A DNA stretch of 34,745 nucleotides, taken from UHGV virus genome UHGV-0163337; one strand, given 5' to 3'. Source of the stretch: a virus. Shown here in pieces: positions 3,895-28,142 of this stretch (positions are counted from its first letter, which is position 1; every line of letters begins with the position of its first letter). The translations under genes and the position numbers were made by a program. The notes under the pieces are model-generated. The model was not told the origin of the DNA, did no database searches, and saw only the letters and a list, made by a program, of their open reading frames with translations.

Positions 3895-4166
3895 GTATTC
3901 GTATTGAAATTGGCGAACGTTATGTCGTTACCAGTGACAGCTTTCAGTTTATTCTCCACGAGAAAAAGAGAGCGGAAAGCGGTAAAAACGCCGGTCAGGA
4001 ATGGCTGGCGGTGGTTGGTTATTACCCGAAATTAAGCCAGCTCGTTTCCGGCCTGATGCATCACGATATTCTGACCGGAAGCGCAAAATCTTTTGCCGAT
4101 TTAAACGTGCAGGTTGAGCAACTCAGCAGGCGTTGTTCAGAGGCTTTTGGCTCATATGGACGTTAA
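3891..4166 (+). CDS. hypothetical early protein (P2 orf83 position)
   Basis: 91-aa ORF overlapping upstream stop (ATGA) and the 5' end of A. Confidence 0.55.
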   Translation: MSIRIEIGERYVVTSDSFQFILHEKKRAESGKNAGQEWLAVVGYYPKLSQLVSGLMHHDILTGSAKSFADLNVQVEQLSRRCSEAFGSYGR

Positions 4167-6432
4167 AGCCTCCGGGCGTTTTGTCCCTCCGTCAGCATTT
4201 GCCGCAGGCACCGGTAAGACGTTTACCGGTGCTTATGCATGGAACGCGCCACGCGAGGCTGTCGGGCGCGAAAGACCCCTTACACGTGACGAGATGCGTC
4301 AGGTGCAAGGTGTTTTATCCACGATAAATCGCCTGCCTTATTTTTTGCGCTCGCTGTTTACTTCACGCTATGACTACATCCGGCGCAATAAAAGCCCGGT
4401 GCACGGGTTTTATTTCCTCACATCCACTTTTCAGCGTCGTTTATGGCCGCGTATTGAGCGTGTGAATCAGCGCCATGAAATGAACACCGACGCGTCGTTG
4501 CTGTTTCTGGCAGAGCGTGACCACTATGCACGCCTGCCGGGAATGAATGACAAGGAGCTGAAAAAGTTTGCCGCCCGTATCTCATCGCAGCTTTTCATGA
4601 TGTATGAGGAACTCTGCGATGCCTGGGTGGATGCGCATGGCGAAAAAGAATCGCTGTTTACGGATGAGGCGCAGGCTCACCTGTATGGTCATGTTGCTGG
4701 CGCTGCACGTGCTTTCAATATTTCCCCTCTCTACTGGAAAAAATACCGTAAAGGGGAGATGACCACGAGGCAGGCATATTCTGCCATTGCCCGTCTGTTT
4801 AACGATGAGTGGTGGACTCATCAGCTTAAAGGCCAGCGTATGCGTTGGCATGAGGCGTTACTGATTGCTGTCGGGGAGGTAAATAAAGACCGTTCACCTT
4901 ATGCCAGTAAACATGCTATTCGTGATGTGCGTGCGCGCCGCCAGGCAAATCTGGAATTTCTTAAATCGTGTGACCTTGAAAACAGGGAAACCGGCGAACG
5001 CATCGACCTTATCAGTAAGGTGATGGGCAGTATTTCTAATCCAGAAATTCGCCGGATGGAGCTGATGAACACCATCGCCGGAATTGAGCGTTACGCCGCC
5101 GCAGAGGGTGATGTGGGGATGTTTATCACGCTGACCGCGCCGTCAAAGTATCACCCGACACGTCAGGTCGGAAAAGGCGAAAGTAAAACCGTCCAGCTTA
5201 ATCACGGCTGGAACCATGAGGCATTTAATCCAAAGGATGCGCAGCGTTATCTCTGCCGTATCTGGAGCCTGATGCGCACGGCATTCAAGGATAATGATTT
5301 ACAGGCCTACGGTTTGCGTGTCGTTGAGCCACACCACGACGGAACGCCGCACTGGCATATGATGCTTTTTTGTAATCCACGCCAGCGTAACCAGATTATT
5401 GAAATCATGCGTCGCTATGCGCTTAAAGAGGATGGCGACGAAAGAGGAGCCGCGCGAAACCGTTTTCAGGCAAAACACCTTAACCGGGGCGGTGCTGCGG
5501 GGTATATCGCGAAATACATCTCAAAAAACATCGATGGCTATGCACTGGATGGTCAGCTCGATAACGATACCGGCAGACCGCTGAAAGACACTGCTGCGGC
5601 TGTTACCGCATGGGCGTCAACGTGGCGCATCCCACAATTTAAAACGGTTGGTCTGCCGACAATGGGGGCTTACCGTGAACTACGCAAATTGCCTCGCGGC
5701 GTCAGCATTGCTGATGAGTTTGACGAGCGCGTCGAGGCTGCACGCGCCGCCGCAGACAGTGGTGATTTTGCGTTGTATATCAGCGCGCAGGGTGGGCCAA
5801 ATGTCCCGCGCGATTGTCAGACTGTCAGGGTCGCCCGTAGTCCGTCGGATGAAGTTAACGAGTACGAGGAAGAAGTCGAGAGAGTGGTCGGCATTTACGC
5901 GCCGCATCTCGGCGCGCGTCATATTCATATCACCAGAACGACGGACTGGCGCATTGTGCCGAAAGTTCCGGTCGTTGAGCCTTTGACTTTAAAAAGCGGC
6001 ATCGCCGCGCCTCGGAGTCCTGTCAATAACTGTGGAAAGCTCACCGGTGGTGATACTTCGTTACCGGCTCCCACACCTTCTGAGCACGCCGCAGCAGTGC
6101 TTAATCTGGTTGATGACGGTGTTATTGAATGGAATGAACCGGAGGTCGTGAGGGCGCTCAGAGGCGCATTAAAATACGACCTGAGAACGCCAAACCGTCA
6201 GCAAAGAAACGGAAGCCCGTTAAAACCGCATGAAATTGCACCATCGGCCAGACTGACCAGGTCTGAACGATTGCAAATCACCCGTATCCGCGTTGACCTT
6301 GCTCAGAACGGTATCAGGCCGCAGCGATGGGAGCTTGAGGCGCTGGCGCGTGGAGCGACCGTAAATTATGACGGGAAAAAATTCACGTATCCGGTCGCTG
6401 ATGAGTGGCCGGGATTCTCGTTACCCATTTGA
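4156..6432 (+). CDS. A: replication initiation endonuclease A (rolling-circle HUH Rep)
   Basis: ~758 aa from ATG 4156 (ORF track starts at TTG 4114); HUH motif PHWHMMLF and active-site tyrosine motif YIAKYISK; P2 gpA ~761 aa. Confidence 0.93.
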   Translation: MDVKASGRFVPPSAFAAGTGKTFTGAYAWNAPREAVGRERPLTRDEMRQVQGVLSTINRLPYFLRSLFTSRYDYIRRNKSPVHGFYFLTSTFQRRLWPRIERVNQRHEMNTDASLLFLAERDHYARLPGMNDKELKKFAARISSQLFMMYEELCDAWVDAHGEKESLFTDEAQAHLYGHVAGAARAFNISPLYWKKYRKGEMTTRQAYSAIARLFNDEWWTHQLKGQRMRWHEALLIAVGEVNKDRSPYASKHAIRDVRARRQANLEFLKSCDLENRETGERIDLISKVMGSISNPEIRRMELMNTIAGIERYAAAEGDVGMFITLTAPSKYHPTRQVGKGESKTVQLNHGWNHEAFNPKDAQRYLCRIWSLMRTAFKDNDLQAYGLRVVEPHHDGTPHWHMMLFCNPRQRNQIIEIMRRYALKEDGDERGAARNRFQAKHLNRGGAAGYIAKYISKNIDGYALDGQLDNDTGRPLKDTAAAVTAWASTWRIPQFKTVGLPTMGAYRELRKLPRGVSIADEFDERVEAARAAADSGDFALYISAQGGPNVPRDCQTVRVARSPSDEVNEYEEEVERVVGIYAPHLGARHIHITRTTDWRIVPKVPVVEPLTLKSGIAAPRSPVNNCGKLTGGDTSLPAPTPSEHAAAVLNLVDDGVIEWNEPEVVRALRGALKYDLRTPNRQQRNGSPLKPHEIAPSARLTRSERLQITRIRVDLAQNGIRPQRWELEALARGATVNYDGKKFTYPVADEWPGFSLPI

Positions 6433-6648
6433 GTAAAAACACAACGTGATTTGATATGGCATTGAATGGCTTATGCGGAGCAGTTATGGGGCAGCAGAAG
6501 GTCAATAGCATGCTGAATTAGAAGGCTAAATGCTATTGAGTGACTAGCATGTCGGTAAGGACGGCCGTTTGATCCGGGTCATAAAAGGCCATCCATTTAG
6601 TCTAATAAAATCATTGCGGGTAACCTTATGTCGACGCATAATTCGTCT

Positions 6649-6722
6649 TGAGCGAAGTCTTGTCAGTCTTTCATCGTATTGATGATGGGCGCAAAAAAAC
6701 CACCCTGGCAGGTGGTTTTTTT
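6649..6722 (+). ncRNA. candidate small RNA (promoter to terminator, no ORF)
   Basis: TTGCGG (6614-6619), 17-nt spacer, CATAAT (6637-6642); ~74 nt to the intrinsic terminator; 5' end carries the 15-nt TTGAGCGAAGTCTTG (6648-6662) repeated at 6912-6926. Confidence 0.35.
6693..6722. terminator. bidirectional intrinsic terminator
   Basis: A7-CCACC-ctggca-GGTGG-T7: GC stem flanked by A-run and T-run, so hairpin plus U-tract on either strand. Confidence 0.8.
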
Positions 6723-6734
6723 GTTTGAAGCATA

Positions 6735-6848
6735 TTAAAGCATAATGCTGACATTGATATTACTGACGTTTACTGACAAACCACTCGGACTACCGTTTGG
6801 ATAGCCAAAGAGGGCCAGAACGAGAATGCAGTAATAGCATTTCTTCAT
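6735..6848 (-). CDS. small hydrophobic peptide (37 aa), candidate type I toxin-like
   Basis: ATG at 6848 with AGGAGG SD 4 nt upstream; MKKCYYCILVLALFGYPNGSPSGLSVNVSNINVSIML; ends 13 nt before the bidirectional terminator; AT-rich. Confidence 0.4.
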   Translation of the reverse strand: MKKCYYCILVLALFGYPNGSPSGLSVNVSNINVSIML

Positions 6849-7326
6849 ATTGCCTCCTGTAAGTAGAGGGCAACTTCCACCGGTATATGCGCTTCTTAGG
6901 TGGAATGACTTTTGAGCGAAGTCTTGCCCTGAAATAATGCTCTGTTTAAACGCAAAGTGATTTGGCATATCACCGAACAGAGAGCCGGAAAAACACAACA
7001 TATAGTATGTCGTTGTTTCTAGACATACATTCTATGTTGTGTAACAAGGGCTTTGCATTAAACATGTTTGAGATTTTATTGATGTAGCTCAAAGTAAAAA
7101 ACAGAGACTACGGATGATAAGGTCTTGAAAGCAATGTAAATTTTTTAAAGTTGCCAATTGCTTAAAAATGTACAGTTGCGGTATGGCGTACTTAAAAAGC
7201 TATGCATGCAACAAGTGAATGTTTTTGCATGCGTTGGGGATGTCCGTTCAGGCTGCGTGCGGTCAGGACTGGTGCGGATCCATAGTATCTATGCAACTGC
7301 ATTAAAACCGCCCCGTGAAGCGGGCG

Positions 7327-7345
7327 GGCGAGGCGGGGAAAGCAC
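7327..7345. other. cos: cos site (19-nt cohesive end sequence, P2-type)
   Basis: GGCGAGGCGGGGAAAGCAC matches the P2 cohesive end as I recall it; GC-rich block between A and Q as expected in a prophage. Confidence 0.7.
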
Positions 7346-7499
7346 TGCGCGCCAAACGATGTCGCTGGCTTGCAGCTACCCGGTTGAAATTCTTATTTTT
7401 TTGTTGCATTATTCTTAGCGCACCAGCGATTCGCTTGGTATGCGGCAGTCAACAACATTAAATTGTCAGTTTTTGCTTTTACAAAAAAGCGTCCACTAT

Positions 7500-7660
7500 G
7501 GACCTATCAGCGAGGCCCCACCGTCGTCAACTACGATGGTGCCGTAGCCGACGACATTACGTACGGTCGAAAGATAGCAGAGGCTGTTGCTGGCAATTGT
7601 TGATGTAAGCATCTCTGCTGTTCCACCCTTGAGTATGGGAAGACCGTACGTAACTTTGAA
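7500..7660 (+). ncRNA. candidate structured leader / retron msr-msd-like ncRNA upstream of RT
   Basis: Hairpin 7523-7555 (13-bp imperfect stem); nested inverted repeats TACGTACGGTC (7558-7568)/GACCGTACGTA (7642-7652) and AGCAGAG (7576-7582)/CTCTGCT (7613-7619); boundaries not determined. Confidence 0.3.
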
Positions 7661-8861
7661 TTTGAATGGTATGTTTATGGATAAATTTAAACCATACAGC
7701 AAATCCAATGCTCCTATCACAACACTTGAAAAGTTGTCAAAGGCTTTATCGATTTCTGTTGAAGAGCTTAAAGCTATTGCAGAACTACCATTAGATGAGA
7801 AATATACTCTAAAAGAAATTCCCAAAATTGACGGAAGCAAACGGATTGTCTACTCCCTGCATCCTAAAATGAGATTATTACAGAGTAGAATTAATAAACG
7901 TATTTTTAAGGAATTGGTTGTTTTTCCTTCATTTTTGTTTGGTTCAGTCCCCAGTAAAAATGATGTTTTAAATTCTAACGTCAAGCGTGACTATGTTTCA
8001 TGCGCAAAGGCTCATTGTGGAGCAAAAACAGTTCTCAAGGTGGATATAAGTAATTTTTTCGATAATATCCATAGAGATCTGGTTAGGAGCGTGTTTGAGG
8101 AGATATTGCATATTAAGGATGAGGCTCTTGAATACTTGGTGGATATATGTACTAAGGATGATTTTGTCGTACAGGGGGCCTTAACATCAAGCTATATAGC
8201 AACTTTGTGTTTATTCGCTGTTGAAGGGGATGTGGTAAGACGTGCGCAGAGGAAAGGACTTGTTTATACGCGTTTGGTAGATGATATTACCGTGTCATCT
8301 AAAATAAGTAATTATGATTTTTCTCAAATGCAAAGCCATATAGAGAGGATGCTTTCTGAGCATGACTTGCCGATAAATAAGCACAAAACTAAAATATTTC
8401 ACTGTTCATCTGAACCTATAAAAGTACATGGTTTAAGAGTTGACTATGACTCACCTCGACTACCATCCGATGAAGTCAAAAGAATCAGGGCATCTATACA
8501 TAATTTGAAATTACTGGCGGCAAAAAATAACACAAAAACAAGTGTTGCATACAGAAAAGAATTCAATAGATGTATGGGGAGAGTGAATAAGCTTGGCCGT
8601 GTTGGGCATGAAAAATATGAATCATTCAAGAAACAGTTGCAGGCAATAAAACCGATGCCATCTAAAAGAGATGTTGCTGTGATTGATGCAGCTATAAAAA
8701 GTTTAGAGTTGTCGTATTCGAAAGGTAATCAAAATAAACATTGGTATAAAAGAAAATATGATTTGACGAGATATAAGATGATTATTCTTACTCGCTCTGA
8801 ATCATTTAAAGAAAAACTGGAGTGTTTTAAATCTAGATTGGCATCTTTAAAACCATTATGA
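7635..8861 (+). CDS. retron-type reverse transcriptase
   Basis: RT catalytic box YTRLVDDITV; retron-like AKAH (NAxxH position), VDISNFFDN and KVHGL (VTG position); first ATG 7635; alternatives TTG 7587 or ATG 7671; AT-rich. Confidence 0.8.
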   Translation: MGRPYVTLNLNGMFMDKFKPYSKSNAPITTLEKLSKALSISVEELKAIAELPLDEKYTLKEIPKIDGSKRIVYSLHPKMRLLQSRINKRIFKELVVFPSFLFGSVPSKNDVLNSNVKRDYVSCAKAHCGAKTVLKVDISNFFDNIHRDLVRSVFEEILHIKDEALEYLVDICTKDDFVVQGALTSSYIATLCLFAVEGDVVRRAQRKGLVYTRLVDDITVSSKISNYDFSQMQSHIERMLSEHDLPINKHKTKIFHCSSEPIKVHGLRVDYDSPRLPSDEVKRIRASIHNLKLLAAKNNTKTSVAYRKEFNRCMGRVNKLGRVGHEKYESFKKQLQAIKPMPSKRDVAVIDAAIKSLELSYSKGNQNKHWYKRKYDLTRYKMIILTRSESFKEKLECFKSRLASLKPL

Positions 8862-9565
8862 ATGCAAATATTAGACTTCTCAAATATATTGTCGGTGTGT
8901 CGTCAGCTCTTTTTTTGATTTTTTCGCTAATTTCTCTTTTTGAAACTATTCAGAATGAAAAGCTATATGAGCGTGATATATGCTTCGATAGCCAGTGCTT
9001 AAAATTTTTTGCGGAAAAAACATCTGGTATAGTAATGTATTTTCAGGCGTTTGGATGGCTTATAACAACTTTTGTTACCGTTTTTGGTGTTATGATTGCT
9101 TTGATGACATATAACGCTGGAGTTAAAAATAATAATAATAGTAATTACACTAGTCATCTGACGATGTTTAGAGAATTTGCAAGTGCTGAGTTAACTAAAA
9201 GAAGTAGCATCTATCCAGAGAAAGTTAATTTTTTTAGATGGTATAGGGTTATGTTCCCTGAAGCGCAAGGCGGTGATATATCTGTTTCGAGAGATTATCT
9301 AGAAATAATATCTAGAATCAAATGTGTTATTGAGGAAGCCAATGCACATATTACAGAGGAAAGTAAAGACTATAAATATAAAACTCATCAGAGAAAAATG
9401 ATGGCTGTTTTGGATGAAATCGGTATATCGATTAGTAATGGGCCCAAAAATATTTTTATCGAGGTTGAGAGTCAAATTTTGGATTATATCGATACTATTA
9501 ATTTGTCATTTTGTCATTCCTCATCAGTGATAGAATTAAGTAGAGTAAAAAGGAAGTATATATAG
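8858..9565 (+). CDS. 2-TM membrane protein, putative effector partnered with the RT
   Basis: ATGA overlap with RT stop; 235 aa; hydrophobic helices ~10-28 and ~58-84, then ~150-aa soluble domain; AT-rich. Confidence 0.7.
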   Translation: MNANIRLLKYIVGVSSALFLIFSLISLFETIQNEKLYERDICFDSQCLKFFAEKTSGIVMYFQAFGWLITTFVTVFGVMIALMTYNAGVKNNNNSNYTSHLTMFREFASAELTKRSSIYPEKVNFFRWYRVMFPEAQGGDISVSRDYLEIISRIKCVIEEANAHITEESKDYKYKTHQRKMMAVLDEIGISISNGPKNIFIEVESQILDYIDTINLSFCHSSSVIELSRVKRKYI

Positions 9566-9568
9566 TTA

Positions 9569-9595
9569 AGTTGGCGGGGTTGCATTCCGCCAACT
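9569..9595. terminator. bidirectional terminator between convergent 2-TM gene and Q
   Basis: AGTTGGCGG-ggttgcatt-CCGCCAACT hairpin followed by TTTATATATTT. Confidence 0.7.
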
Positions 9596-9607
9596 TTATA
9601 TATTTAC

Positions 9608-10627
9608 TTATAAGTTATAATCAAGGAATTTTATGACTTCCATATCTAACCATTCATTTATTGACTTTATTCTCTCCTGTAATGGAATGAGTTCATTGCG
9701 GACAAAGACCTTTGCCACTTTTTCAATATCTCCTAGTGACCCGACATTCTCCGGCTTACCGCCCATCAACTGAAAGGGGATGCGGTGTGCGTCCAGGAGA
9801 TCTGCGGCGCTGACTTTTTTGATATTAAAAAAATCGTCCTTCGTCGCCACTTCACTGAGGGGGATAATTTTAATGCCGTCGGCTTTCCCCTGTGGGGCAT
9901 AGAGAAACAGGTTTTTAAAGTTGTTGCGGCCTTTCGACTTCACCATGTTTTCGCGGAGCATTTCGATATCGTTGCGATCCTGCACGGCATCAGTGACGTA
10001 CATGATATATCCGGCATGAGCGCCGTTTTCGTAATACTTGCGGCGGAACAGCGTGGCCGACTCATTCAGCCAGGCAGAATTAAGGGCGCTGAGATATTCC
10101 GGCAGACCGTACAGCTCCTGATTAATATCCGGCTCCAGCAGGTGAAACACGGAGCCGGGCGTGAAGGCTGTCGGCTCGTTGAAGGACGGCACCCACCAGT
10201 AAACATCCTCCTCCACGCCACGGCGGGTATATTTTGCCGGTGAGGTTTCCAGTCTGATGACCTTACCGGTGGTGCTGTAACGCTTTTCCAGAAACGCATT
10301 ACCGAACACCAGAAAATCCAGCACAAAGCGGCTGAAATCCTGCTGGGAAAGCCACGGATGCGGGATAAATGTCGAGGCCAGAATATTGCGTTTGACGTAA
10401 ATCGGCGAGCTGTGATGCACGGCAGCACGCAGGCTTTTCGCCAGACCGGTAAAGCTGACCGGCGGCTCATACCATCTGCCGTTACTGATGCACTCGACGT
10501 AATCCAGAATGTCACGGCGGTCGAGTACCGGCACCGGCTCACCAAAGGTGAATGCCTCCATTTTCGGGGCGCTGGCGGTCATTTTTTTTGCCGCAGGTTG
10601 CGGTGTTTTCCCTTTTTTCTTGCTCAT
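9608..10627 (-). CDS. Q: portal protein Q
   Basis: 339 aa (P2 gpQ ~344); overlaps P stop; position at left end next to cos. Confidence 0.9.
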   Translation of the reverse strand: MSKKKGKTPQPAAKKMTASAPKMEAFTFGEPVPVLDRRDILDYVECISNGRWYEPPVSFTGLAKSLRAAVHHSSPIYVKRNILASTFIPHPWLSQQDFSRFVLDFLVFGNAFLEKRYSTTGKVIRLETSPAKYTRRGVEEDVYWWVPSFNEPTAFTPGSVFHLLEPDINQELYGLPEYLSALNSAWLNESATLFRRKYYENGAHAGYIMYVTDAVQDRNDIEMLRENMVKSKGRNNFKNLFLYAPQGKADGIKIIPLSEVATKDDFFNIKKVSAADLLDAHRIPFQLMGGKPENVGSLGDIEKVAKVFVRNELIPLQERIKSINEWLDMEVIKFLDYNL

Positions 10628-12399
10628 CAGTAAAACTCCAGAATGGTGGATGTCAGCGGGGTGCTGATACCGGCGGTGAGTGGCTCATTTAACAGGGCGT
10701 GCATGGTCGCCCATGCGAGGTCGGCGTGGCTTGCTTCCTCGCTGCGGCTGGCCTCATAGGTGGCGCTGCGTCCGCTGCTGGTCATGGTCTTGCGGATAGC
10801 CATAAACGAGCTGGTGATGTCGGTGGCGCTGACGTCATATTCCAGACAGCCACGGCGGATAACGTCTTTGGCCTTGAGCACCATTGCGGTTTTCATTTCC
10901 GGCGTGTAGCGGATATCGCGCGCGGCGGGATAGAACGAGCGCACGAGCTGGAACACGCCGACACCAAGGCCGGTGGCATCAATACCGATGTATTCGACGT
11001 TGTATTTTTCGGTGAGTTTGCGGATGGATTCCGCCTGGGTGGCAAAGTCCATGCCTTTCCACTGGTGACGCTCAAGTATTCTGAATTTGCCACCGGCCAC
11101 CACCGGCGGTGCCAGCACCACGCATCCGGCGCTGTCGCCACGGTGTGACGGGTCGTAACCAATCCATACCGGACGTGAGCCGAACGGATTGGCGGCAAAC
11201 GGCGCATAGTCTTCCCATTCTTCCAGCGTGTCGACCATGCAGCGTTGCAGCTCCTCGAACGGGAACACCGACGCCTTGTCGTCAACAAATTCACACATGA
11301 ACAGGTTTTTAAAATCGTCGGCGCTGTTTTCACGTTTGAGCTGCTCAATGTCGAACAGTGTGCAGCCGCCTTTCAGGGCGTCCTCAATGGTGACAATCTG
11401 CCGCCACTGGCCGTCCGCACAGAGAAGCCCGCTGGCAAGGGCGTTATGACTGACGTCGATTTCCACACGTTCGGCGGCGCTGGCACGTCCCCGGTTGAAC
11501 AGTTCACCTGACCAGAACGGGTAGGCGTCGTGCGCCAGCGTGGACGGGGTGGAGAAATAGGTCGAGCGCAGGTGACTCTGTGAGGCCATACCTGATGCCA
11601 CCTTACGCAGTACCTGAAAATTCGGGATCCAGAAAATCTCATCGACGTACAGGTCGCCGTTATGGCTCTGCGCGGTGTTGGAGTTGGTGCCGAGAAAAAT
11701 CAGTTTTGCGCCGTTATTGCCCAGGACAATCGGGTCACCGGTAAGGTCAATGTCCACCAGACGGGCAAAGGCGATGATGTATTCGCGGAACACATACGCC
11801 TGCGTTTTACTGGCCGACAGAAAAATCTGGTTATGACCGGTTTTCAGGGCGCGCAGCAGTGCCTCGCGGGAAAAATAAAACGTCGCGCCAATCTGGCGGG
11901 ATTTCAGGATATCGCGGATGCGGTGCTCAAGCCCGGCGCGATACCAGTGCAACTGATAGTCGAAAGACTGCTCAAAGAAAATCTGCTCCAGCTTTTCGAT
12001 GGCCTCGTCACTGAAAAAATTCTTTTTCGGTTTGCGCCGCCCGTCTTTGTTGCGGTTAGCGACGTTCGGATTAAGGTCTGCCTCGTTGCCGGTCTGGCTG
12101 TAGCGATTTACCCGTGCCAGTCGTTCAATCTGGCGTCCCAGCAGGTCAATTTCCTTGAAGTCACCGCCGGTTTTCTGCGGTTTGATGATGAGCTGGGTCA
12201 GCCGCGCTTCCAGGCTCATTTCGACACGGCTGATGGGGGCAACGTTGTCCCAGCCGTCGCGCTGTTTCCAGCTCTGCACCGTCGGGCGTTTCATCTGCAA
12301 CATGGCGGAAATCTGCGGCACGGAAAACCCCTGCCAGTACAGCAGCGCCGCCTGACGACGCGGGTCGTGTAAAAGAGTGGTGTCTGTGGTGATGGTCAT
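10627..12399 (-). CDS. P: terminase large (ATPase) subunit P
   Basis: 590 aa from ATG 12399 with GAGG SD (ORF track extends to TTG 12429); P2 gpP ~590 aa. Confidence 0.9.
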   Translation of the reverse strand: MTITTDTTLLHDPRRQAALLYWQGFSVPQISAMLQMKRPTVQSWKQRDGWDNVAPISRVEMSLEARLTQLIIKPQKTGGDFKEIDLLGRQIERLARVNRYSQTGNEADLNPNVANRNKDGRRKPKKNFFSDEAIEKLEQIFFEQSFDYQLHWYRAGLEHRIRDILKSRQIGATFYFSREALLRALKTGHNQIFLSASKTQAYVFREYIIAFARLVDIDLTGDPIVLGNNGAKLIFLGTNSNTAQSHNGDLYVDEIFWIPNFQVLRKVASGMASQSHLRSTYFSTPSTLAHDAYPFWSGELFNRGRASAAERVEIDVSHNALASGLLCADGQWRQIVTIEDALKGGCTLFDIEQLKRENSADDFKNLFMCEFVDDKASVFPFEELQRCMVDTLEEWEDYAPFAANPFGSRPVWIGYDPSHRGDSAGCVVLAPPVVAGGKFRILERHQWKGMDFATQAESIRKLTEKYNVEYIGIDATGLGVGVFQLVRSFYPAARDIRYTPEMKTAMVLKAKDVIRRGCLEYDVSATDITSSFMAIRKTMTSSGRSATYEASRSEEASHADLAWATMHALLNEPLTAGISTPLTSTILEFY

Positions 12400-12572
12400 G
12401 AATACCTCGCCGTGATGAATACACGGCAAGGCTACTGAGTCGCGCCCTGCGATTCGCTAAGGTGCTGTTGTGTCAGTGATAAGCCATCCGGGACTGATGG
12501 CGGAGGATGCGCATCGTCGGGAAACTGATGCCGACATGTGACTCCTCTAATCACTATTCAGGACTCCTGACA

Positions 12573-18844: not shown

Positions 18845-19630
18845 TTATGAGTGGTTTTTATTTGATGATTTGTATTCTACAACTTTTTTATTGGCGTAAA
18901 GGAATTTTGTATATGACAGAAGTATAACCAGACCTGAAGTGAAATAGACGAGGGATATTATTAATAATGTTTTTCTGTGGCTGTTATTATCTTTAATCTC
19001 CTGACTTAACCATTTGGAGTCCTCCTCGTTTAGCTGTAAGAGCTTATTGCAGGCGATTGCAGGAAGTGTGTCTGTTACAAAAGTGTTCTGCAGTCTCTTG
19101 CAATCGGCAATGCTAAAAGCTTTATAGAACTTATCTGTTTTATTGTCGGAGAACAAAAGAACCTTGTCATTATAAACATGGTACATCATATTTTTATATG
19201 GTATGGCTATGGCATCCTCTACTATGGCAGATTGCTCGTTGTGTATGCAACATGCGAAGGTAATATAAAGAATTCCGGCCAGGACTGCACTCATTGTTTT
19301 TGTGATGCATGGCGGTTCTGTTATGTCTCCCCAGAAGCGAGTAAGGAAAAAATCCGATGTTTTTAGTTTTCCATCAATCAACCCCTGCTGTATCATTTTC
19401 ACATCTTTGATGCCTGATACATTGATTCCGTTAATTATTTTAAATAGTTGAATGTCGCGCCACTCGCGGTCCAGTCTTTTTAATTTTTTATCTGAATATC
19501 CAAATTTGAAATAATGTGCAATAAGCCTCATAAGGTTACTTTTACCAAAGCTAAAAAATGCTAATACTACAAAGACCAAAAGATACAAGACGATTAGCTC
19601 CCACACATTAGTCACATTATAGCTGACCAT
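18845..19630 (-). CDS. AT-rich membrane protein of unknown function (cargo at P2 orf30 position)
   Basis: 261 aa; strong SD AAGGAGAG; hydrophobic segments at N-terminus, middle and C-terminus; opposite strand to flanking late genes; low GC. Confidence 0.65.
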   Translation of the reverse strand: MVSYNVTNVWELIVLYLLVFVVLAFFSFGKSNLMRLIAHYFKFGYSDKKLKRLDREWRDIQLFKIINGINVSGIKDVKMIQQGLIDGKLKTSDFFLTRFWGDITEPPCITKTMSAVLAGILYITFACCIHNEQSAIVEDAIAIPYKNMMYHVYNDKVLLFSDNKTDKFYKAFSIADCKRLQNTFVTDTLPAIACNKLLQLNEEDSKWLSQEIKDNNSHRKTLLIISLVYFTSGLVILLSYTKFLYANKKVVEYKSSNKNHS

Positions 19631-24899: not shown

Positions 24900-25427
24900 A
24901 TGCAGCATTTAAAAAATATTACGGCGGGTAATCCAAAAACGGTTGAACAATATCAATTGACAAAAGACTTTGATGTTGTCTGGTTTTTTTCAGAAGATGG
25001 TAAGAACTGGTACGAAGAACAAAAGTATTTTGCTGATGACACGCTAAAAATAGCGTACGACAAAGATAATATCATCCGCTATGTGGAAAAGGATGTGACA
25101 GCTATCAGACCGGATGGATTAAGTGTTGTTGAAGTGGCGGATATTACTGCTAACCGACGGGCGGACATTTCAGGGAACTGGATGTTTAAGGACGGTACAG
25201 TGATTAAACGCATTTATACGGCAGAGGAATTGCAGCAGCAGGCAGAAAACCGGAAAGCCAGACTTCTTGCAGATGCTGAATCCGTGATTTTGCCACTGGA
25301 GCGCGCTGTCAGGCTGAACATGGCAACAGATGAGGAGCGTAGCCGACTGGAAGCATGGGAACGCTACAGTGTTCTGGTCAGCCGTGTGGATCCTGCAAAT
25401 CCTGAATGGCCGGAAATGCCGCAATAA
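24900..25427 (+). CDS. G: tail fiber assembly chaperone G
   Basis: 175 aa, same as P2 gpG; immediately after H. Confidence 0.85.
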
Positions 25428-25462
25428 GTTGTATGAACTCTGGTGTGAGCTTACATATCTAT

Positions 25463-25502
25463 GGCACAGAGTAAAGCCTAATCTGACAGTCCGCTCTGTG
25501 CC
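25463..25502 (+). terminator. hairpin downstream of G (weak terminator candidate)
   Basis: 9-bp inverted repeat GGCACAGAG / CTCTGTGCC with 22-nt loop; no U-tract. Confidence 0.3.
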
Positions 25503-25606
25503 AGGAGCGGAAGTAGCTAACAGCTCTTAGTGTTGATTAATGAGGAGCAGGCCGCTATCGCTAATTCCGCTTGCTGATGTATGGTAAGTACTGATAACCT
25601 TGATTT

Positions 25607-26458
25607 ATGATACTTAGTTTATACATCATATTATGGATGATCATTATGTCGCGTAGCTTATACCCAACGACCTTGTTTCATTTTACTGAAAAGTTAGATA
25701 CCTTATTTGAGATACTTGACTCAAGTTATTTTCGAATTTCTTTCGCTAGAGAGTTTATACAAGGCCAGAGCACGAATAGAAATTTCGGTATACCGATGGT
25801 TTCATTTTGTGATATCAGGCTAACACAGCTTACCCAGCATACTGAAAGTTATGGCCATTATGGCATAGGATTATCAAAAGATTGGGCAAACGAAAATGGA
25901 CTTAATCCAGTAATTTACATGTCCAAGCACTCTTCTGTTTTTGATAATTATAATCTAGAGATTAGGCGTTTAAAAGCAGAAGTTAATAAGTTATTAAAGC
26001 ATTTGGACGAAATAAAATCTTCAGGAACAACATCTCAATTAACTAATGCAAAGCGGAAATATGACTCGGCGATTCTTAGTTACAAGAAAATTGTAGATCC
26101 TTTGCGATATATGAAAAATTACCAGGCAACTTTGAAACGACGCAATGGTCAGGAGAAACCTAACTATATTTTTGCAGATGAGAGGGAGTGGCGATTTGTT
26201 CCAGATATAGAAAAATCAATTGGAAAACCAGTGATCGCTGCTTCGAAAAATATATCAACTCAAGATGGCAAGAGAAAATATAACGAATATTATGATGATG
26301 ACAGGTTACCCTTTTCACATAAGGATATTAAATATGTCATTGTAGAGCATGAAAGTGATGTTGAAAAGATGATGGACTTTCTGCATATAAAGTATGGTTC
26401 AAAAAGTAGCTTGATTCCAAGGGTTCTCTCAACCGAATTGATAGCGAATGATATGTAA
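25607..26458 (+). CDS. AT-rich cargo protein of unknown function (possible Abi-like), P2 Z/fun position
   Basis: 283-aa ORF (alternative ATG 25646 would remove the hydrophobic N-terminal 13 aa); very low GC; no catalytic motif recognised by eye. Confidence 0.6.
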   Translation: MILSLYIILWMIIMSRSLYPTTLFHFTEKLDTLFEILDSSYFRISFAREFIQGQSTNRNFGIPMVSFCDIRLTQLTQHTESYGHYGIGLSKDWANENGLNPVIYMSKHSSVFDNYNLEIRRLKAEVNKLLKHLDEIKSSGTTSQLTNAKRKYDSAILSYKKIVDPLRYMKNYQATLKRRNGQEKPNYIFADEREWRFVPDIEKSIGKPVIAASKNISTQDGKRKYNEYYDDDRLPFSHKDIKYVIVEHESDVEKMMDFLHIKYGSKSSLIPRVLSTELIANDM

Positions 26459-26774
26459 TTTAAGCTCTGTTTTTGCCTAAATTATCTATGCAATGCTTCC
26501 TTTTTGATACTTCATCGTGCTCTTATTGTGTTTAACGCTAAAACTAACCTACTCCCCGTGTTTCACATAGACCGCTATTAGCAATGTCCGCTGCGTGCGA
26601 AGAGCGGACATTACTAACATAGTGCCCAGAAGCTTTAAGGGAAGTAAGTCAAGTCCAAAAGTGCGGTTAAAGTAATGCTAATCTTTCCATTGAATGAGTG
26701 GATTGAGTATTAGAATTACATCTCCATAGCTACTTAAGCGGATTATTTAAAATTTTAATTAAGAGGTTCTAATT

Positions 26775-27779
26775 ATGGATAGATTTGAAATAAAACTTAA
26801 TGAAATCAATGAAATTCTTTCAAAGAATCAATTGGGGCTTATCTATGATTTTATAAATGATAGAGATAATGGTCTCGTACTGCCGTTTTTTAGTAAATAC
26901 ATGGACTCTGTTCGAAAATTAGATCTGGATTTTTGCATTACAACCAACTCACATTTTCAATGCGGCATTATTTATGATGAAAAATTGATATTTATGTCTT
27001 ATGGCACATTTGATAGACTATGTAAGTTATCTGACTTGATTTTTCGGTCAGGGATGATAACAGGGAAAAGTACTAATTTAAACTTTTATGACTTGCATCT
27101 CGTTACTAATCCATTTGTTGGGTTTAACAATGAGACAAGAGAGGAAAGTGAGTCCGAATCACACTTATTTATGTTTATTCTTGATTGTCTAATGCTGTTT
27201 ATAGTTAGTCACGAAGTAGGCCATTTCATTAATAAACATGGCGACCGAGCAAAAAAGCAATCTATTGACACTATCTTTGATGATGTTTTAGGACATAAAA
27301 AAATCAATAGCGCAGAAATAATATCAAGCCACGCAAGAGAATTAGTTGCAGATGGTTTTGCTCTTAATATTGTAAAAAAACATGTACAGTCTGCATTTGA
27401 TCAGAAGGCATCTTATCTTAATAACTTGCTTGATTTTTATAGCAGCAAGGAAGGCGGAATTGCATTTTCATTGCTATTAATACTGTGCTACTTCAAACTT
27501 TCTGATGGCTTATCACCCCATGAACATTTTCAATCGACACATCCCTCAACGGCGGCACGAGTTCGATTTATTCTCAGTTGTCATATTGAATCATTAGTCA
27601 ATGAGGATGAAGAAAAAACTTTTGGATTTTACTATGGTTTAATCATAACTCAATTGAAATCAATATTTGCATCTATGGGAGATGACTTTGAGTTAACTTG
27701 GATAAAGGATACGAACTCACCTGAAATGACCGAGTGGTTTAATAATGTTTATAAAGAGCATCCAAAATGGTTAGCATAA
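26775..27779 (+). CDS. HExxH zinc-metallopeptidase-like protein (cargo), possibly Lit-like phage-exclusion protease
   Basis: 334 aa; AAGAGG SD 8 nt before ATG; HEVGH at residues 146-150 followed by ELVAD ~40 aa downstream; very low GC. Confidence 0.6.
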   Translation: MDRFEIKLNEINEILSKNQLGLIYDFINDRDNGLVLPFFSKYMDSVRKLDLDFCITTNSHFQCGIIYDEKLIFMSYGTFDRLCKLSDLIFRSGMITGKSTNLNFYDLHLVTNPFVGFNNETREESESESHLFMFILDCLMLFIVSHEVGHFINKHGDRAKKQSIDTIFDDVLGHKKINSAEIISSHARELVADGFALNIVKKHVQSAFDQKASYLNNLLDFYSSKEGGIAFSLLLILCYFKLSDGLSPHEHFQSTHPSTAARVRFILSCHIESLVNEDEEKTFGFYYGLIITQLKSIFASMGDDFELTWIKDTNSPEMTEWFNNVYKEHPKWLA

Positions 27780-28019
27780 TACCTCTTATATAATGCTGAT
27801 GGTATATTAATATTGAATTGATAATCCTGAATGTCGCTGACTTTAATAAAGCATTGAAATTAGAAAAAGTGAAGTTTTATAATGCTCTTTAATAATTCAT
27901 GTCACTCAACAGCGAAAAGCGTGAAGGTCTGCTCCTCGCTCAAAGCAGACTGTCAGAATTGATAGCGTTTGGGCTATGTAAATTGTCAGTCGGAAAATGA
28001 GTGAGTACAAATCAGGACA

Positions 28020-28046
28020 GGCGGGCGAATTGCCCGCCTTTTCTTT
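28020..28046 (+). terminator. intrinsic terminator closing the cargo island before FI
   Basis: GGCGGGC-gaatt-GCCCGCC stem-loop followed by TTTTCTTT. Confidence 0.8.
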
Positions 28047-28142
28047 ATCTGTTGTTTCATCCACTGACCAGCCAGGTCAAATAGCGTCTCATGCACTGCC
28101 CAACAGAAAATAGTTGCACCCATTAACCACGGAGTTAAACGG

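Follow-up and report, generated by a model that had tools for sequence, protein, structure and literature searches.

The question raised by the cos-proximal region of the virus genome UHGV-0163337 is whether the reverse transcriptase (RT) gene found there, and the small membrane-protein gene that follows it, belong to a known defence system or to a new one. The window referred to below is the whole stretch of this genome that was analysed, with a length of 34,745 nucleotides. The initial annotation, a reading of the letters by eye, recognised a retron from motifs, gene overlap and base composition, and may serve as a calibration of such reading; it proposed a prophage-borne retron-type defence module in a variable cos-proximal locus, and left open whether the RT was Ec48-like or came from an uncharacterised clade. 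The cargo segment is the part between a P2-type cos and the portal gene Q, and its borders are as follows.

7327-7345, unstranded: P2-type cos (cohesive end of 19 nt), bounding the cargo on the left; exact match to GGCGAGGCGGGGAAAGCAC
9568-9596, unstranded: G+C-rich hairpin with a 13-bp stem holding six G-C pairs, terminator-like in the direction of the effector gene; from a terminator scan, which found it on the plus strand only
9608-10627, minus strand: portal gene Q, bounding the cargo on the right and context outside the retron; phrog_68 portal protein, 579 bits, full length

Positions 1-26 of P2 (NC_001895) align to 7327-7352 with zero mismatches, and the likeness stops at 7352. At the other end, the RefSeq annotation at the Q position of a matching genome reads 'phage portal protein', and the flanking genes are of P2 type: A (phrog_91), the replication gene, at 4114-6432, the portal gene (phrog_68) and the terminase gene (phrog_5751). 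The Q stop codon at 9608 gives a cos-Q spacer of about 2.26 kb, whereas in P2 itself, with cosL at 1-19 and the end of Q at 187, only 167 bp separate the two; the contrast drawn initially between a short P2 spacer and one of ~2.3 kb here is thus borne out. The same is true of the remark that both genes are more AT-rich than the phage backbone, as the GC content is 0.30-0.40 over 7700-9650 against roughly 0.55-0.60 in the neighbouring phage genes. The hairpin at 9568-9596 sits between the converging effector and Q genes, a placement that matches that of the P2 terminator tQ (160-181, between cos and Q); no sequence likeness between this hairpin and tQ was found.

With AT-rich accessory genes between A and Q, adjoining cos, the segment has the make-up of a P2-like cos-proximal hotspot, and gpA-cos-gpQ in P2-like phages has been described as a defence hotspot with retrons among its contents (Rousset et al. 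2022, PMC9122126). The earlier description of the A-Q region as a variable cargo locus that carries tin and old in P2 needs one adjustment: in P2 these genes lie on the A side of cos and not between cos and Q. Two genes fill the segment.

7677-8861, plus strand: retron Ec48 RT, 394 aa from ATG; PADLOC RT_IV, Pfam RVT_1 and RefSeq call
8858-9565, plus strand: retron Ec48 effector, 235 aa, with two N-terminal transmembrane helices; 2TM_IV, NF038235 and phrog_10895

The ~400-aa RT frame described initially, with its motifs YTRLVDDITV, AKAH, VDISNFFDN and KVHGL, is present in 7587-8861 on the plus strand. Alternative in-frame starts are ATG 7671 (396 aa), ATG 7635 (408 aa) and TTG 7587 (424 aa). 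The likely start is ATG 7677, which is RefSeq's 394-aa call, and TTG 7587 is not the likely start; the 408-aa numbering from ATG 7635 is that used by Millman et al. (bioRxiv 2020.06.21.156273). NCBI has proteins for each of the three ATG starts, and 227 contigs carry the one of 394 aa. Neither ATG 7671 nor ATG 7677 is preceded by a visibly strong Shine-Dalgarno sequence. An invariant AUG at 7635-7637 might have been the conserved RT start, but it was ruled out because in one related locus (L001) it opens a frame of only four codons.

The profile-HMM comparison suggested by the initial annotation was run on both proteins, and the best models were RT_IV for the RT and 2TM_IV for its neighbour. 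PADLOC RT_IV matches the RT with 586.2 bits (7.6e-177) over model positions 2-385 of 386, followed by RT_V (211.9 bits) and RT_VI (181.3 bits), and the best 25 PADLOC matches are all retron RT models except for one CRISPR-associated RT; Pfam RVT_1 matches with 110 bits (1.7e-31). The family matches of RT and effector (RVT_1, RT_IV and 2TM_IV) are far beyond chance. The retron regions X (NAxxH) and Y (VTG) are present as the variants AKAH and VHG, and it is at just these two motifs that RT-Eco6 (Ec48) is known to deviate (Simon et al. 2019, PMC6868368). Counted from ATG 7635, the two aspartates of LVDD are residues 216 and 217, the ones altered in the D216A/D217A mutant (Millman et al., bioRxiv 2020.06.21.156273). 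The catalytic residues D123, D202 and D203, invariant across 23 homologues, are all present here. A PDB sequence search with the RT matched only Ec86 and other distant retron RTs.

The second gene agrees with its first description as a 235-aa frame with an ATGA overlap and two hydrophobic N-terminal helices: its ATG overlaps the RT stop codon as ATGA, and the Kyte-Doolittle profile has two peaks, near residues 14-23 and 67-77. The ATGA overlap couples translation of the effector to that of the RT. PADLOC 2TM_IV matches residues 3-235 with 282.6 bits (5.2e-85), the NCBIfam equivalog NF038235, 'retron Ec48 family effector membrane protein', scores 227.5 bits against a cut-off of 65, and phrog_10895 matches over the full length with 480 bits. 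In 43 of 46 type IV loci, from many genera, the RT is followed by an effector homologue. The exact effector sequence occurs on 9 NCBI contigs against 227 for the exact RT, making this form of the effector the rarer one, and a PDB sequence search with the effector found no solved relative. Over-expressed alone, the effector is not toxic (Palka et al., PMC8989520).

The DNA itself points the same way. The stretch 7340-9600 recurs with at least 99% identity in 57 of 5426 complete E. coli genomes, where the annotation reads 'retron Ec48 family effector membrane protein'; the closest of the complete genomes disagree with the module at 0.5-0.7% of bases, phage pro147 (NC_028896) has it with 99.3% identity, likewise between cos and Q, and the exact RT and effector protein sequences are both present in NCBI. 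Upstream of the RT lie the elements expected of the retron transcript.

7384-7412, plus strand: candidate sigma-70-like promoter, TTGAAA, 17 nt, CATTAT; 9 of 12 positions match in a consensus scan, a consensus match only
7398-7583, plus strand: Ec48/Eco6 ncRNA (msr-msd) in its literature boundaries; match to the printed Retron-Eco6 ncRNA
7517-7564, plus strand: msd, template of the 48-nt msDNA; published RT-DNA mapped onto the sequence

Over 183 aligned bases, 7398-7583 differs from the Retron-Eco6 ncRNA (Khan et al. supplement, PMC10849725) by three single-base indels and zero substitutions. We take the three indels to be machine-reading errors, because the RT-DNA line of the same file agrees with UHGV-0163337 at all three sites. 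The primers with which Kong et al. (PMC8563936 supplement) cloned Ec48 have exact matches at 7508-7533 and 7530-7552, and their codon-optimised RT primers encode GRPYVTLN and LASLKPL, which are the N-terminus (from ATG 7635) and the C-terminus of the RT frame. The published RT-DNA begins GTACGTAATGTCGTC..., the complement of 7564 running downwards, and Palka et al. (PMC8989520) give the msDNA a length of 48 nt, while their sequencing puts its 3' end three bases short of this, for 45 nt (7520-7564). The msd can form a hairpin at 7523-7535/7543-7555 or, alternatively, at 7519-7526/7534-7541; the 48-mer folded as DNA gives a 13-bp hairpin of -11.1 kcal/mol, and the census donor-replacement site 130;136 corresponds to 7527-7533. 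An Rfam scan of 6300-9700 at E <= 1 found no retron RNA family; sub-threshold matches were Phe_leader and RNAI at the terminator hairpin 6690-6725, and HrrF at 9506-9597, overlapping the terminator hairpin 9568-9596. The initial annotation proposed to look for msr/msd in 7346-7660; the boundaries of the ncRNA are corrected to about 7398 or 7418 on the left and 7583, perhaps extending to 7655, on the right.

Taken together, the family models, the DNA identity of at least 99% and the ncRNA support the proposed prophage-borne defence module, and we put the probability at roughly 95% that what lies here is retron Ec48 (Retron-Eco6), the founding member of type IV, in intact form, carried as P2-like prophage cargo between cos and the Q-side terminator and acting by the published mechanism. 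The choice left open by eye is settled in favour of Ec48 (RT_IV 586 bits, NF038235 227.5 bits): on sequence grounds the RT does not come from a new clade and is that of retron Ec48/Retron-Eco6. The module is already known, as the system and its location have both been described.

Three other readings have to be set against this assignment. The RT could be a non-retron defence RT of the UG/Abi or DRT kind, such as Abi-P2, working free of msDNA and with the two-transmembrane protein as an unrelated neighbour. Other RT genes do occur in the P2-like hotspot, as in E. coli NZ_CP049845 and pro147, where a second RT of about 515 aa stands on the A side of cos beside the same module, and the RT in our window gives weak matches to Drt3a, Drt2, Drt4 and AbiA. 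These matches span only the generic polymerase core, however, and in bits they stay far below the curated cut-offs (39.8 against 200, 34.8 against 390, 16.6 against 450 and 24.2 against 250, respectively), while PADLOC's best models are all retron RT types with RT_IV matched over its full length, the RNA upstream of the RT is the published Eco6 ncRNA, and the two-transmembrane protein accompanies this RT clade in the 43 of 46 loci, from many genera; we consider this reading highly improbable. Less credible still is a group II intron maturase or diversity-generating-retroelement (DGR) RT, that is, a mobile or mutagenic element with no role in defence, which the family scores have already refuted. 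The one match of this sort, to the group II intron RT/maturase TIGR04416 (E = 6.8e-12), reaches 45.2 bits where the cut-off is 300, over residues 143-318 only; DGR families are absent from the PADLOC, Pfam and NCBIfam matches, the Rfam scan of 6300-9700 found no group II intron RNA, and in place of template/variable repeat pairs, which are absent, there is a retron ncRNA. An RT grouping with group II or DGR enzymes was one of the outcomes named in the initial annotation as counting against its proposal, and it did not occur.

The third reading accepts descent from Ec48 and holds that this copy is inactive or differently tuned, either as silenced or decayed cargo or through another trigger. AT-rich, horizontally acquired cargo is often silenced, with immunity loci silenced by H-NS according to a 2026 preprint; the 0.5-0.7% of bases that differ from the nearest complete genomes, and the lack of a visible strong Shine-Dalgarno before ATG 7671 or 7677, could be read in the same sense. 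Against this, the RT and effector frames are full length relative to the family models, the homologue-invariant catalytic residues are kept, the ncRNA is the same as that used experimentally, and the occurrence of the exact RT protein on 227 contigs argues for a maintained allele. An inactive or retuned copy therefore seems improbable, if less so than the two readings above, and we infer from the full-length frames, the catalytic residues and the identity of the ncRNA to the one tested that the UHGV-0163337 copy is functional.

For an intact Ec48, the published work suggests how the module would operate (Millman et al., bioRxiv 2020.06.21.156273). A single transcript would run from the promoter just right of cos through the ncRNA, the RT gene and the overlapping effector gene to the hairpin before Q; the candidate promoter at 7384-7412 would start it near 7418-7420, and most of 33 related type IV loci have a -10-like hexamer at a distance of 7-10 nt before the conserved GC that precedes the first hairpin (H1) of the RNA. 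Judging from work on essentially the same sequence, the RT would prime from the 2'-OH of an ncRNA guanosine and copy the msd at 7517-7564 into a 48-nt single-stranded DNA still joined to the RNA (msDNA). According to the literature, the complex of msDNA and RT would restrain the membrane effector, and defence would need both RT activity and the transmembrane helices of the effector. The predicted trigger is a phage inhibitor of RecBCD (lambda Gam or T7 gp5.9) or the loss of RecB, and the outcome would be membrane permeabilisation and growth arrest or death of the infected cell with zero phage progeny, that is, abortive infection. Triggering of Retron-Eco6 by Gam has been confirmed independently (bioRxiv 2025.10.22.683967), as has its defence against T7 (PMC13645617). 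This P2-like prophage would then give its host a suicide system that guards RecBCD. The same prophage holds a second AT-rich island with an AbiGi-like gene; this island and the retron fit the published view of P2/P4 hotspots as defence reservoirs.

The part of the locus that may interest retron specialists, and the sole part, is a conserved structure in the RNA that reaches past its published end.

7423-7503, plus strand: 5' msr-like domain, from pair counts on 34 type IV loci; H1 7423-7438, 5' strand of pseudoknot helix B 7440-7443 and 7448-7452, H2 7475-7490, H3 7491-7503
7554-7656, plus strand: conserved 3' RNA domain, from covariation and a covariance model; 7584-7656 lies past the published ncRNA end
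7557-7568 with 7642-7653, plus strand: 12-bp helix I1, enclosing the rest of the 3' domain; 12/12 complementary
7573-7582 with 7613-7622, plus strand: long stem of the 3' domain; its loop holds the 3' strand of helix B, 7600-7604 and 7609-7612
7626-7639, plus strand: small hairpin of the 3' domain, CCC-UUGAGUAU-GGG, from covariation

Over the 34 type IV loci, paired cells amount to 84% for H1, 95-96% for helix B, 94% for H2 and 92% for H3, with compensatory changes in most pairs of the 5' domain helices, and a blind scan over all column pairs found the same helices again. In the 3' domain the corresponding figures are 89% for I1, 91% for the long stem and 97% for the small hairpin, with many compensatory changes. 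A covariance model trained without UHGV-0163337 finds 7554-7656 at 72.3 bits (E = 2e-16) as the sole strong match in the window; the same model matches held-out type IV loci and none of 33 non-type-IV RT loci.

The sequence does not single out a priming guanosine. Pairing of 7565-7583 with a canonical a2 placed before G7418 (UUAGCG, a context shared with Ec86) yields only -5.8 kcal/mol, and across the 34 loci this a2 showed no co-variation, cognate pairings being no better than non-cognate ones (-7.24 against -7.41 kcal/mol). I1 is the only conserved helix adjoining the template start. Two candidates were set aside: I1 (7557-7568/7642-7653) as a canonical a2/a1 with a G7569 primer, as the RT-DNA template 7517-7564 is outside the helix, and the seemingly invariant AG at 7546-7547 as a branch site, as the alignment is unreliable there and the site falls inside the reverse-transcribed segment. 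We suggest, tentatively and as a rather doubtful proposition, that the working RNA of Ec48 and other type IV retrons is larger than 7398-7583 and differently wired, reaching from about 7418 to about 7655 with a pseudoknot and I1. Such an RNA would start near 7418, and the stretch upstream that has been taken as a2 looks like a promoter and lacks a covarying partner. The pseudoknot, 7440-7452 with 7600-7612, would join the 5' domain to the conserved 3' domain, and I1 would pair the first eight bases of the template to a strand only 20 nt before the RT start codon. Synthesis of msDNA and then RNase H would necessarily destroy I1, which could let DNA synthesis influence in return how the RT-effector operon is translated; feedback of this kind has recently been demonstrated in type VI, a sister group. 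For the priming G, even a position 3' of the msd is conceivable, for example G7646, which pairs with the first template base. The 3' domain and the pseudoknot bear on the priming position and on the length of flanking RNA for Eco6-based editing constructs.

The closest known system is retron Ec48 itself, whose msDNA was reportedly first described by Mao et al. in 1997. The two share the gene order of ncRNA, RT and overlapping two-transmembrane effector, the ncRNA at 7398-7583, the msd position, the RT termini, the D216/D217 numbering, the AKAH and VHG variants, an effector family at equivalog level, and DNA identity of at least 99% to RefSeq-annotated Ec48 loci; among the features compared we found no substantive difference. 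Pro147 and the P2-like prophages of the 57 complete E. coli genomes carry the same module at 99.3-99.5% identity. In pro147 and in one of these genomes (H2), the two looked at, it occupies the same place from cos to Q, and both have, beyond cos towards A, the additional RT gene (about 515 aa); in UHGV-0163337 the A-cos segment is a short 0.9 kb with only a 37-aa open reading frame.

More distant relatives occupy similar sites. In 186-related prophages, retrons Ec67 and Ec86 are reported to have cos on one side and a terminator on the other (Dodd & Egan 1996, as cited in PMC6868368). Ec67 is a type I-C retron with a Toprim fusion and Ec86 a type II-A retron with a ribosyltransferase-type effector, and their ncRNAs and effectors are unlike those of Ec48. 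P2 old may be regarded as a functional analogue of Ec48, both being P2-family cargo whose exclusion of lambda would hinge on lambda gam/red and on the RecBCD status of the host. Old, which belongs to this hotspot but to the A side of cos, is an ATPase-nuclease that has no RT, RNA or membrane effector and is unrelated in sequence.

The sister groups within RT clade 3 are type V (Retron-Sen1/Se72) and type VI (Retron-Vpa2), which also supply the next-best RT models. Type V retrons are triggered by Gam as well (bioRxiv 2025.10.22.683967). Their effector is a cold-shock-domain protein, and type VI has an HTH protein together with a small toxic peptide whose coding sequence lies within the RNA. At rest, type VI has no detectable msDNA, whereas Eco6 makes it. 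Inverted repeats let the type VI RNA beyond the 3' end of the msd fold onto the msr-msd arm, an arrangement that resembles helix I1 of Ec48.

The segment between the cos site and the portal gene of the window carries two overlapping reading frames, one for a reverse transcriptase (RT) and one for a protein with two transmembrane helices (2-TM), within an arrangement of genes of P2 type.

Features of the cos-portal region
4114-6432, replication gene A (phrog_91)
7327-7345, P2 cohesive end, 19 nt, found by sequence match
7587..8861, + strand, RT ORF, 424 aa from TTG, with in-frame ATGs at 7635, 7671 and 7677
8858..9565, + strand, 2-TM ORF, 235 aa, its ATG overlapping the RT stop as ATGA
9568-9596, G+C-rich hairpin, in the same position as the P2 terminator tQ
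9608-10627, - strand, portal gene Q (phrog_68)
10627-12429, - strand, terminase gene P (phrog_5751)

The RT frame contains YTRLVDDITV, AKAH, VDISNFFDN and KVHGL, and in the 235-aa protein hydropathy analysis places the centres of two hydrophobic stretches near residues 14-23 and 67-77; both frames, the ATGA overlap, the motifs and the two helices lie where the initial annotation had put them. The AT-richness it ascribed to both ORFs is apparent in the GC fraction, which is 0.55-0.60 in the flanking genes and drops to 0.30-0.40 over 7700-9650. Positions 7327-7352 align perfectly with P2 positions 1-26, beyond which the similarity ends, and the distance from cos to the Q stop is 2.26 kb compared with 167 bp in P2, close to the 2.3-kb spacer first estimated. 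The A-Q region had also been described as a cargo locus in which P2 carries tin and old; these two genes are in fact on the A side of cos, while the region itself is a described hotspot. The gpA-gpQ region beside cos of P2-like phages holds 1,650 gene arrangements, retrons included (Rousset et al. 2022, PMC9122126), and retrons Ec67 and Ec86 are placed between cos and a terminator in 186-related prophages (Dodd & Egan 1996, as reported in PMC6868368). The placement of the module is as expected.

Profile searches, which the initial annotation had proposed for both proteins, assign the RT to PADLOC model RT_IV (586 bits, full model length), with the sister types V and VI next at 212 and 181 bits; Pfam recognizes only a generic RVT_1 domain. 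The second protein matches 2TM_IV (283 bits) and NCBIfam NF038235, 'retron Ec48 family effector membrane protein' (227.5 bits, where the cut-off of this equivalog model is 65). An uncharacterized DRT- or Abi-like clade had been considered beside an Ec48-like retron, and the RT scores far below the respective cut-offs for Drt3a (39.8 against 200 bits), Drt2 (34.8 against 390) and AbiA (24.2 against 250). A group II intron RT is rejected at 45.2 bits against a cut-off of 300, and DGR families are absent from the profile-search matches of the RT; an affinity to either of these groups had been named as an outcome that would speak against a retron. Both proteins of the suspected defence module therefore fit one described system, which supports the initial inference of a prophage-borne retron-like module, and the element is the already known retron Ec48 (Retron-Eco6), in the already known P2 hotspot.

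Going by the literature on Ec48, inhibition of RecBCD by an infecting phage would lead to abortive infection via the RT and the transmembrane effector. Defence requires both RT activity and the transmembrane helices; escape mutants map to gam in lambda and to 5.9 in T7, either RecBCD inhibitor kills Ec48 cells when expressed, attempts to bring the system into recB-deleted cells fail, and the outcome of infection is abortive (Millman et al., bioRxiv 2020.06.21.156273). Triggering by Gam (bioRxiv 2025.10.22.683967) and defence against T7 (PMC13645617) have been reproduced, and the effector by itself is non-toxic (Palka et al., PMC8989520). Sequence searches of the PDB returned no solved structure of the RT or the effector.

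Among 5426 complete E. coli genomes, 57 contain the module (7340-9600) at an identity of at least 99%, in a single and always chromosomal copy, annotated as 'reverse transcriptase family protein | retron Ec48 family effector membrane protein'. The exact sequences of both proteins are in NCBI, the 394-aa RT on 227 contigs. The P2-like phage pro147 (NC_028896) carries the module at 99.3% identity, likewise between cos and the portal gene. Among the genes that the GenBank record of this phage gives for the matching stretch is an 'alkylated DNA repair protein AlkB', in place of the Ec48 effector of the RefSeq version; the label looks like a misannotation of the effector. The short 'hypothetical protein' ORF32 of pro147 (2657-2773 of its locus, minus strand) lies in the cos-RT intergenic region that corresponds to the retron ncRNA region of the window, where a 114-aa ORF (7496-7840, - strand) covers the ncRNA; we regard each as a chance reading frame over structured RNA. 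In pro147 (737-2281 of the locus) and E. coli NZ_CP049845 (2251-3798 of the locus), the opposite strand on the A side of cos carries another RT gene, of about 515 aa and unrelated to that of the retron, and two RT-based systems thus flank one cos; the window lacks this gene.

Type IV loci were gathered from other genera, 46 in all (RT identity 35-57%), and 43 of them have a 2-TM homologue downstream of the RT. The architecture of the 240 nt preceding the RT gene is conserved among them.

Conserved helices, each recovered by pair counts and by a blind scan
7423-7438, hairpin H1
7475-7490, hairpin H2
7491-7503, hairpin H3
7557-7568 with 7642-7653, helix I1, 12 bp
7573-7582 with 7613-7622, long stem
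7626-7639, small hairpin
7440-7443 with 7609-7612, and 7448-7452 with 7600-7604, pseudoknot helix B

Across 34 sequences 82% of cells are paired, a share that none of 500 shuffles reached (67% in these) and that falls to 34-44% when the partners are slid by 1-3 columns; the blind scan of all column pairs recovered the same helices and no others. In helix B 95-96% of cells are paired and 8 of the 9 pairs show compensatory changes, and the H3-I1 interval, the msd, varies in sequence and shape, as expected of this element. The covariance-model search suggested for this region proved positive: a model of the 3' domain, trained with the window left out, matches 7554-7656 (72.3 bits, E = 2e-16) and held-out type IV loci, and 0 of 33 non-type-IV RT loci. 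Past the published end of the Eco6 ncRNA (7583), the one in general use, this covarying domain extends conserved structure by about 70 nt toward the RT start. The first 8 template bases are part of helix I1. The RNA might adopt an extended pseudoknotted fold, which msDNA synthesis would necessarily remodel, in analogy to type VI; we consider this reading rather unlikely. The ATG at 7635, the start of a 408-aa RT, is inside the small hairpin, and its equivalent in a related type IV locus (L001) opens four codons only; these observations favor the RefSeq start at 7677 as the probable initiation codon.

Two candidates for the priming G were weighed. G7418 has the context UUAGCG, the same as in Ec86; its would-be a2 repeat overlaps a promoter-like -10 element and pairs weakly with 7565-7583 (-5.8 kcal/mol), and no co-variation between these segments was seen among the type IV loci. 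Beside the template start, I1 is the sole helix to be conserved; it joins C7564, the first base of the template, to G7646, a G that the family does not conserve (columns 260/352). In the census (PMC10849725) the RT-DNA string extends through G7418 to 7405; if it represents one molecule it argues against a branch point within 7405-7564, though its extent may reflect read coverage only. The identification as Ec48 is unaffected by this question.

The 3' end of Q (9608-9950) has a GC of 0.38-0.46, below the remainder of the gene, and no similarity to the P2 cos-Q spacer was found; together these suggest that the cargo exchange boundary may be inside Q and not at its stop codon. A second AT-rich island (25400-28100, GC 0.34) lies between the tail-fibre and tail-sheath genes, the position of the Z/fun variable locus in P2. 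It encodes an AbiGi-like protein (25607-26458, + strand; Pfam PF10899 108 bits, PADLOC AbiGi 141 bits) and an ORF (26775-27779, + strand) whose match to Peptidase_M48 is weak (22.6 bits) and which has none in PADLOC; the latter ORF is therefore not recognizable as an AbiGii partner. A 261-aa ORF (18845-19630, - strand), on the opposite strand in a GC dip to 0.44 within the late-gene region, has no match in Pfam or PADLOC and may be a further accessory gene. In the A-cos segment, where 6433-7170 shares 88% identity with a part of a Peduovirus P2 record that carries no annotation, a 37-aa hydrophobic ORF, MKKCYYCILVLALFGYPNGSPSGLSVNVSNINVSIML (6735-6848, - strand), has an AGGAGG ribosome-binding site, ends at a strong G+C-rich hairpin (6690-6725) with A and T runs on either side, and matches nothing in PHROG or PADLOC.

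At the level of sequence, four independent checks against published material agree on the Ec48 identity. The Ec48 primers of Kong et al. (PMC8563936) match exactly at 7508-7533 and 7530-7552, and both ends of the RT ORF, GRPYVTLN at the N-terminus (counted from 7635) and LASLKPL at the C-terminus, are encoded by their codon-optimized RT primers. The Retron-Eco6 ncRNA in the census of Khan et al. (PMC10849725) equals 7398-7583 except for three single-base indels, which we take as machine-reading errors since the RT-DNA line of the same file agrees with the window at all three sites. That RT-DNA starts at the complement of C7564, which implies a 48-nt msDNA templated by 7517-7564; Palka et al. 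(PMC8989520) found the msDNA to be 3 bases shorter at its 3' end. The Ec48 RT was inactivated by D216A/D217A, and both transmembrane helices were removed by deletion of residues 3-85 (Millman et al., bioRxiv 2020.06.21.156273); the DD of LVDD is 216/217 counted from the ATG at 7635, and the hydrophobic segments of the effector fall inside residues 3-85. Finally, RT-Eco6 (Ec48) is one of two validated retron RTs in which the Asn of NAxxH is substituted, and was singled out as the T-to-H case in VTG (Simon et al. 2019, PMC6868368); the AKAH and VHG of the window RT are these same published deviations.
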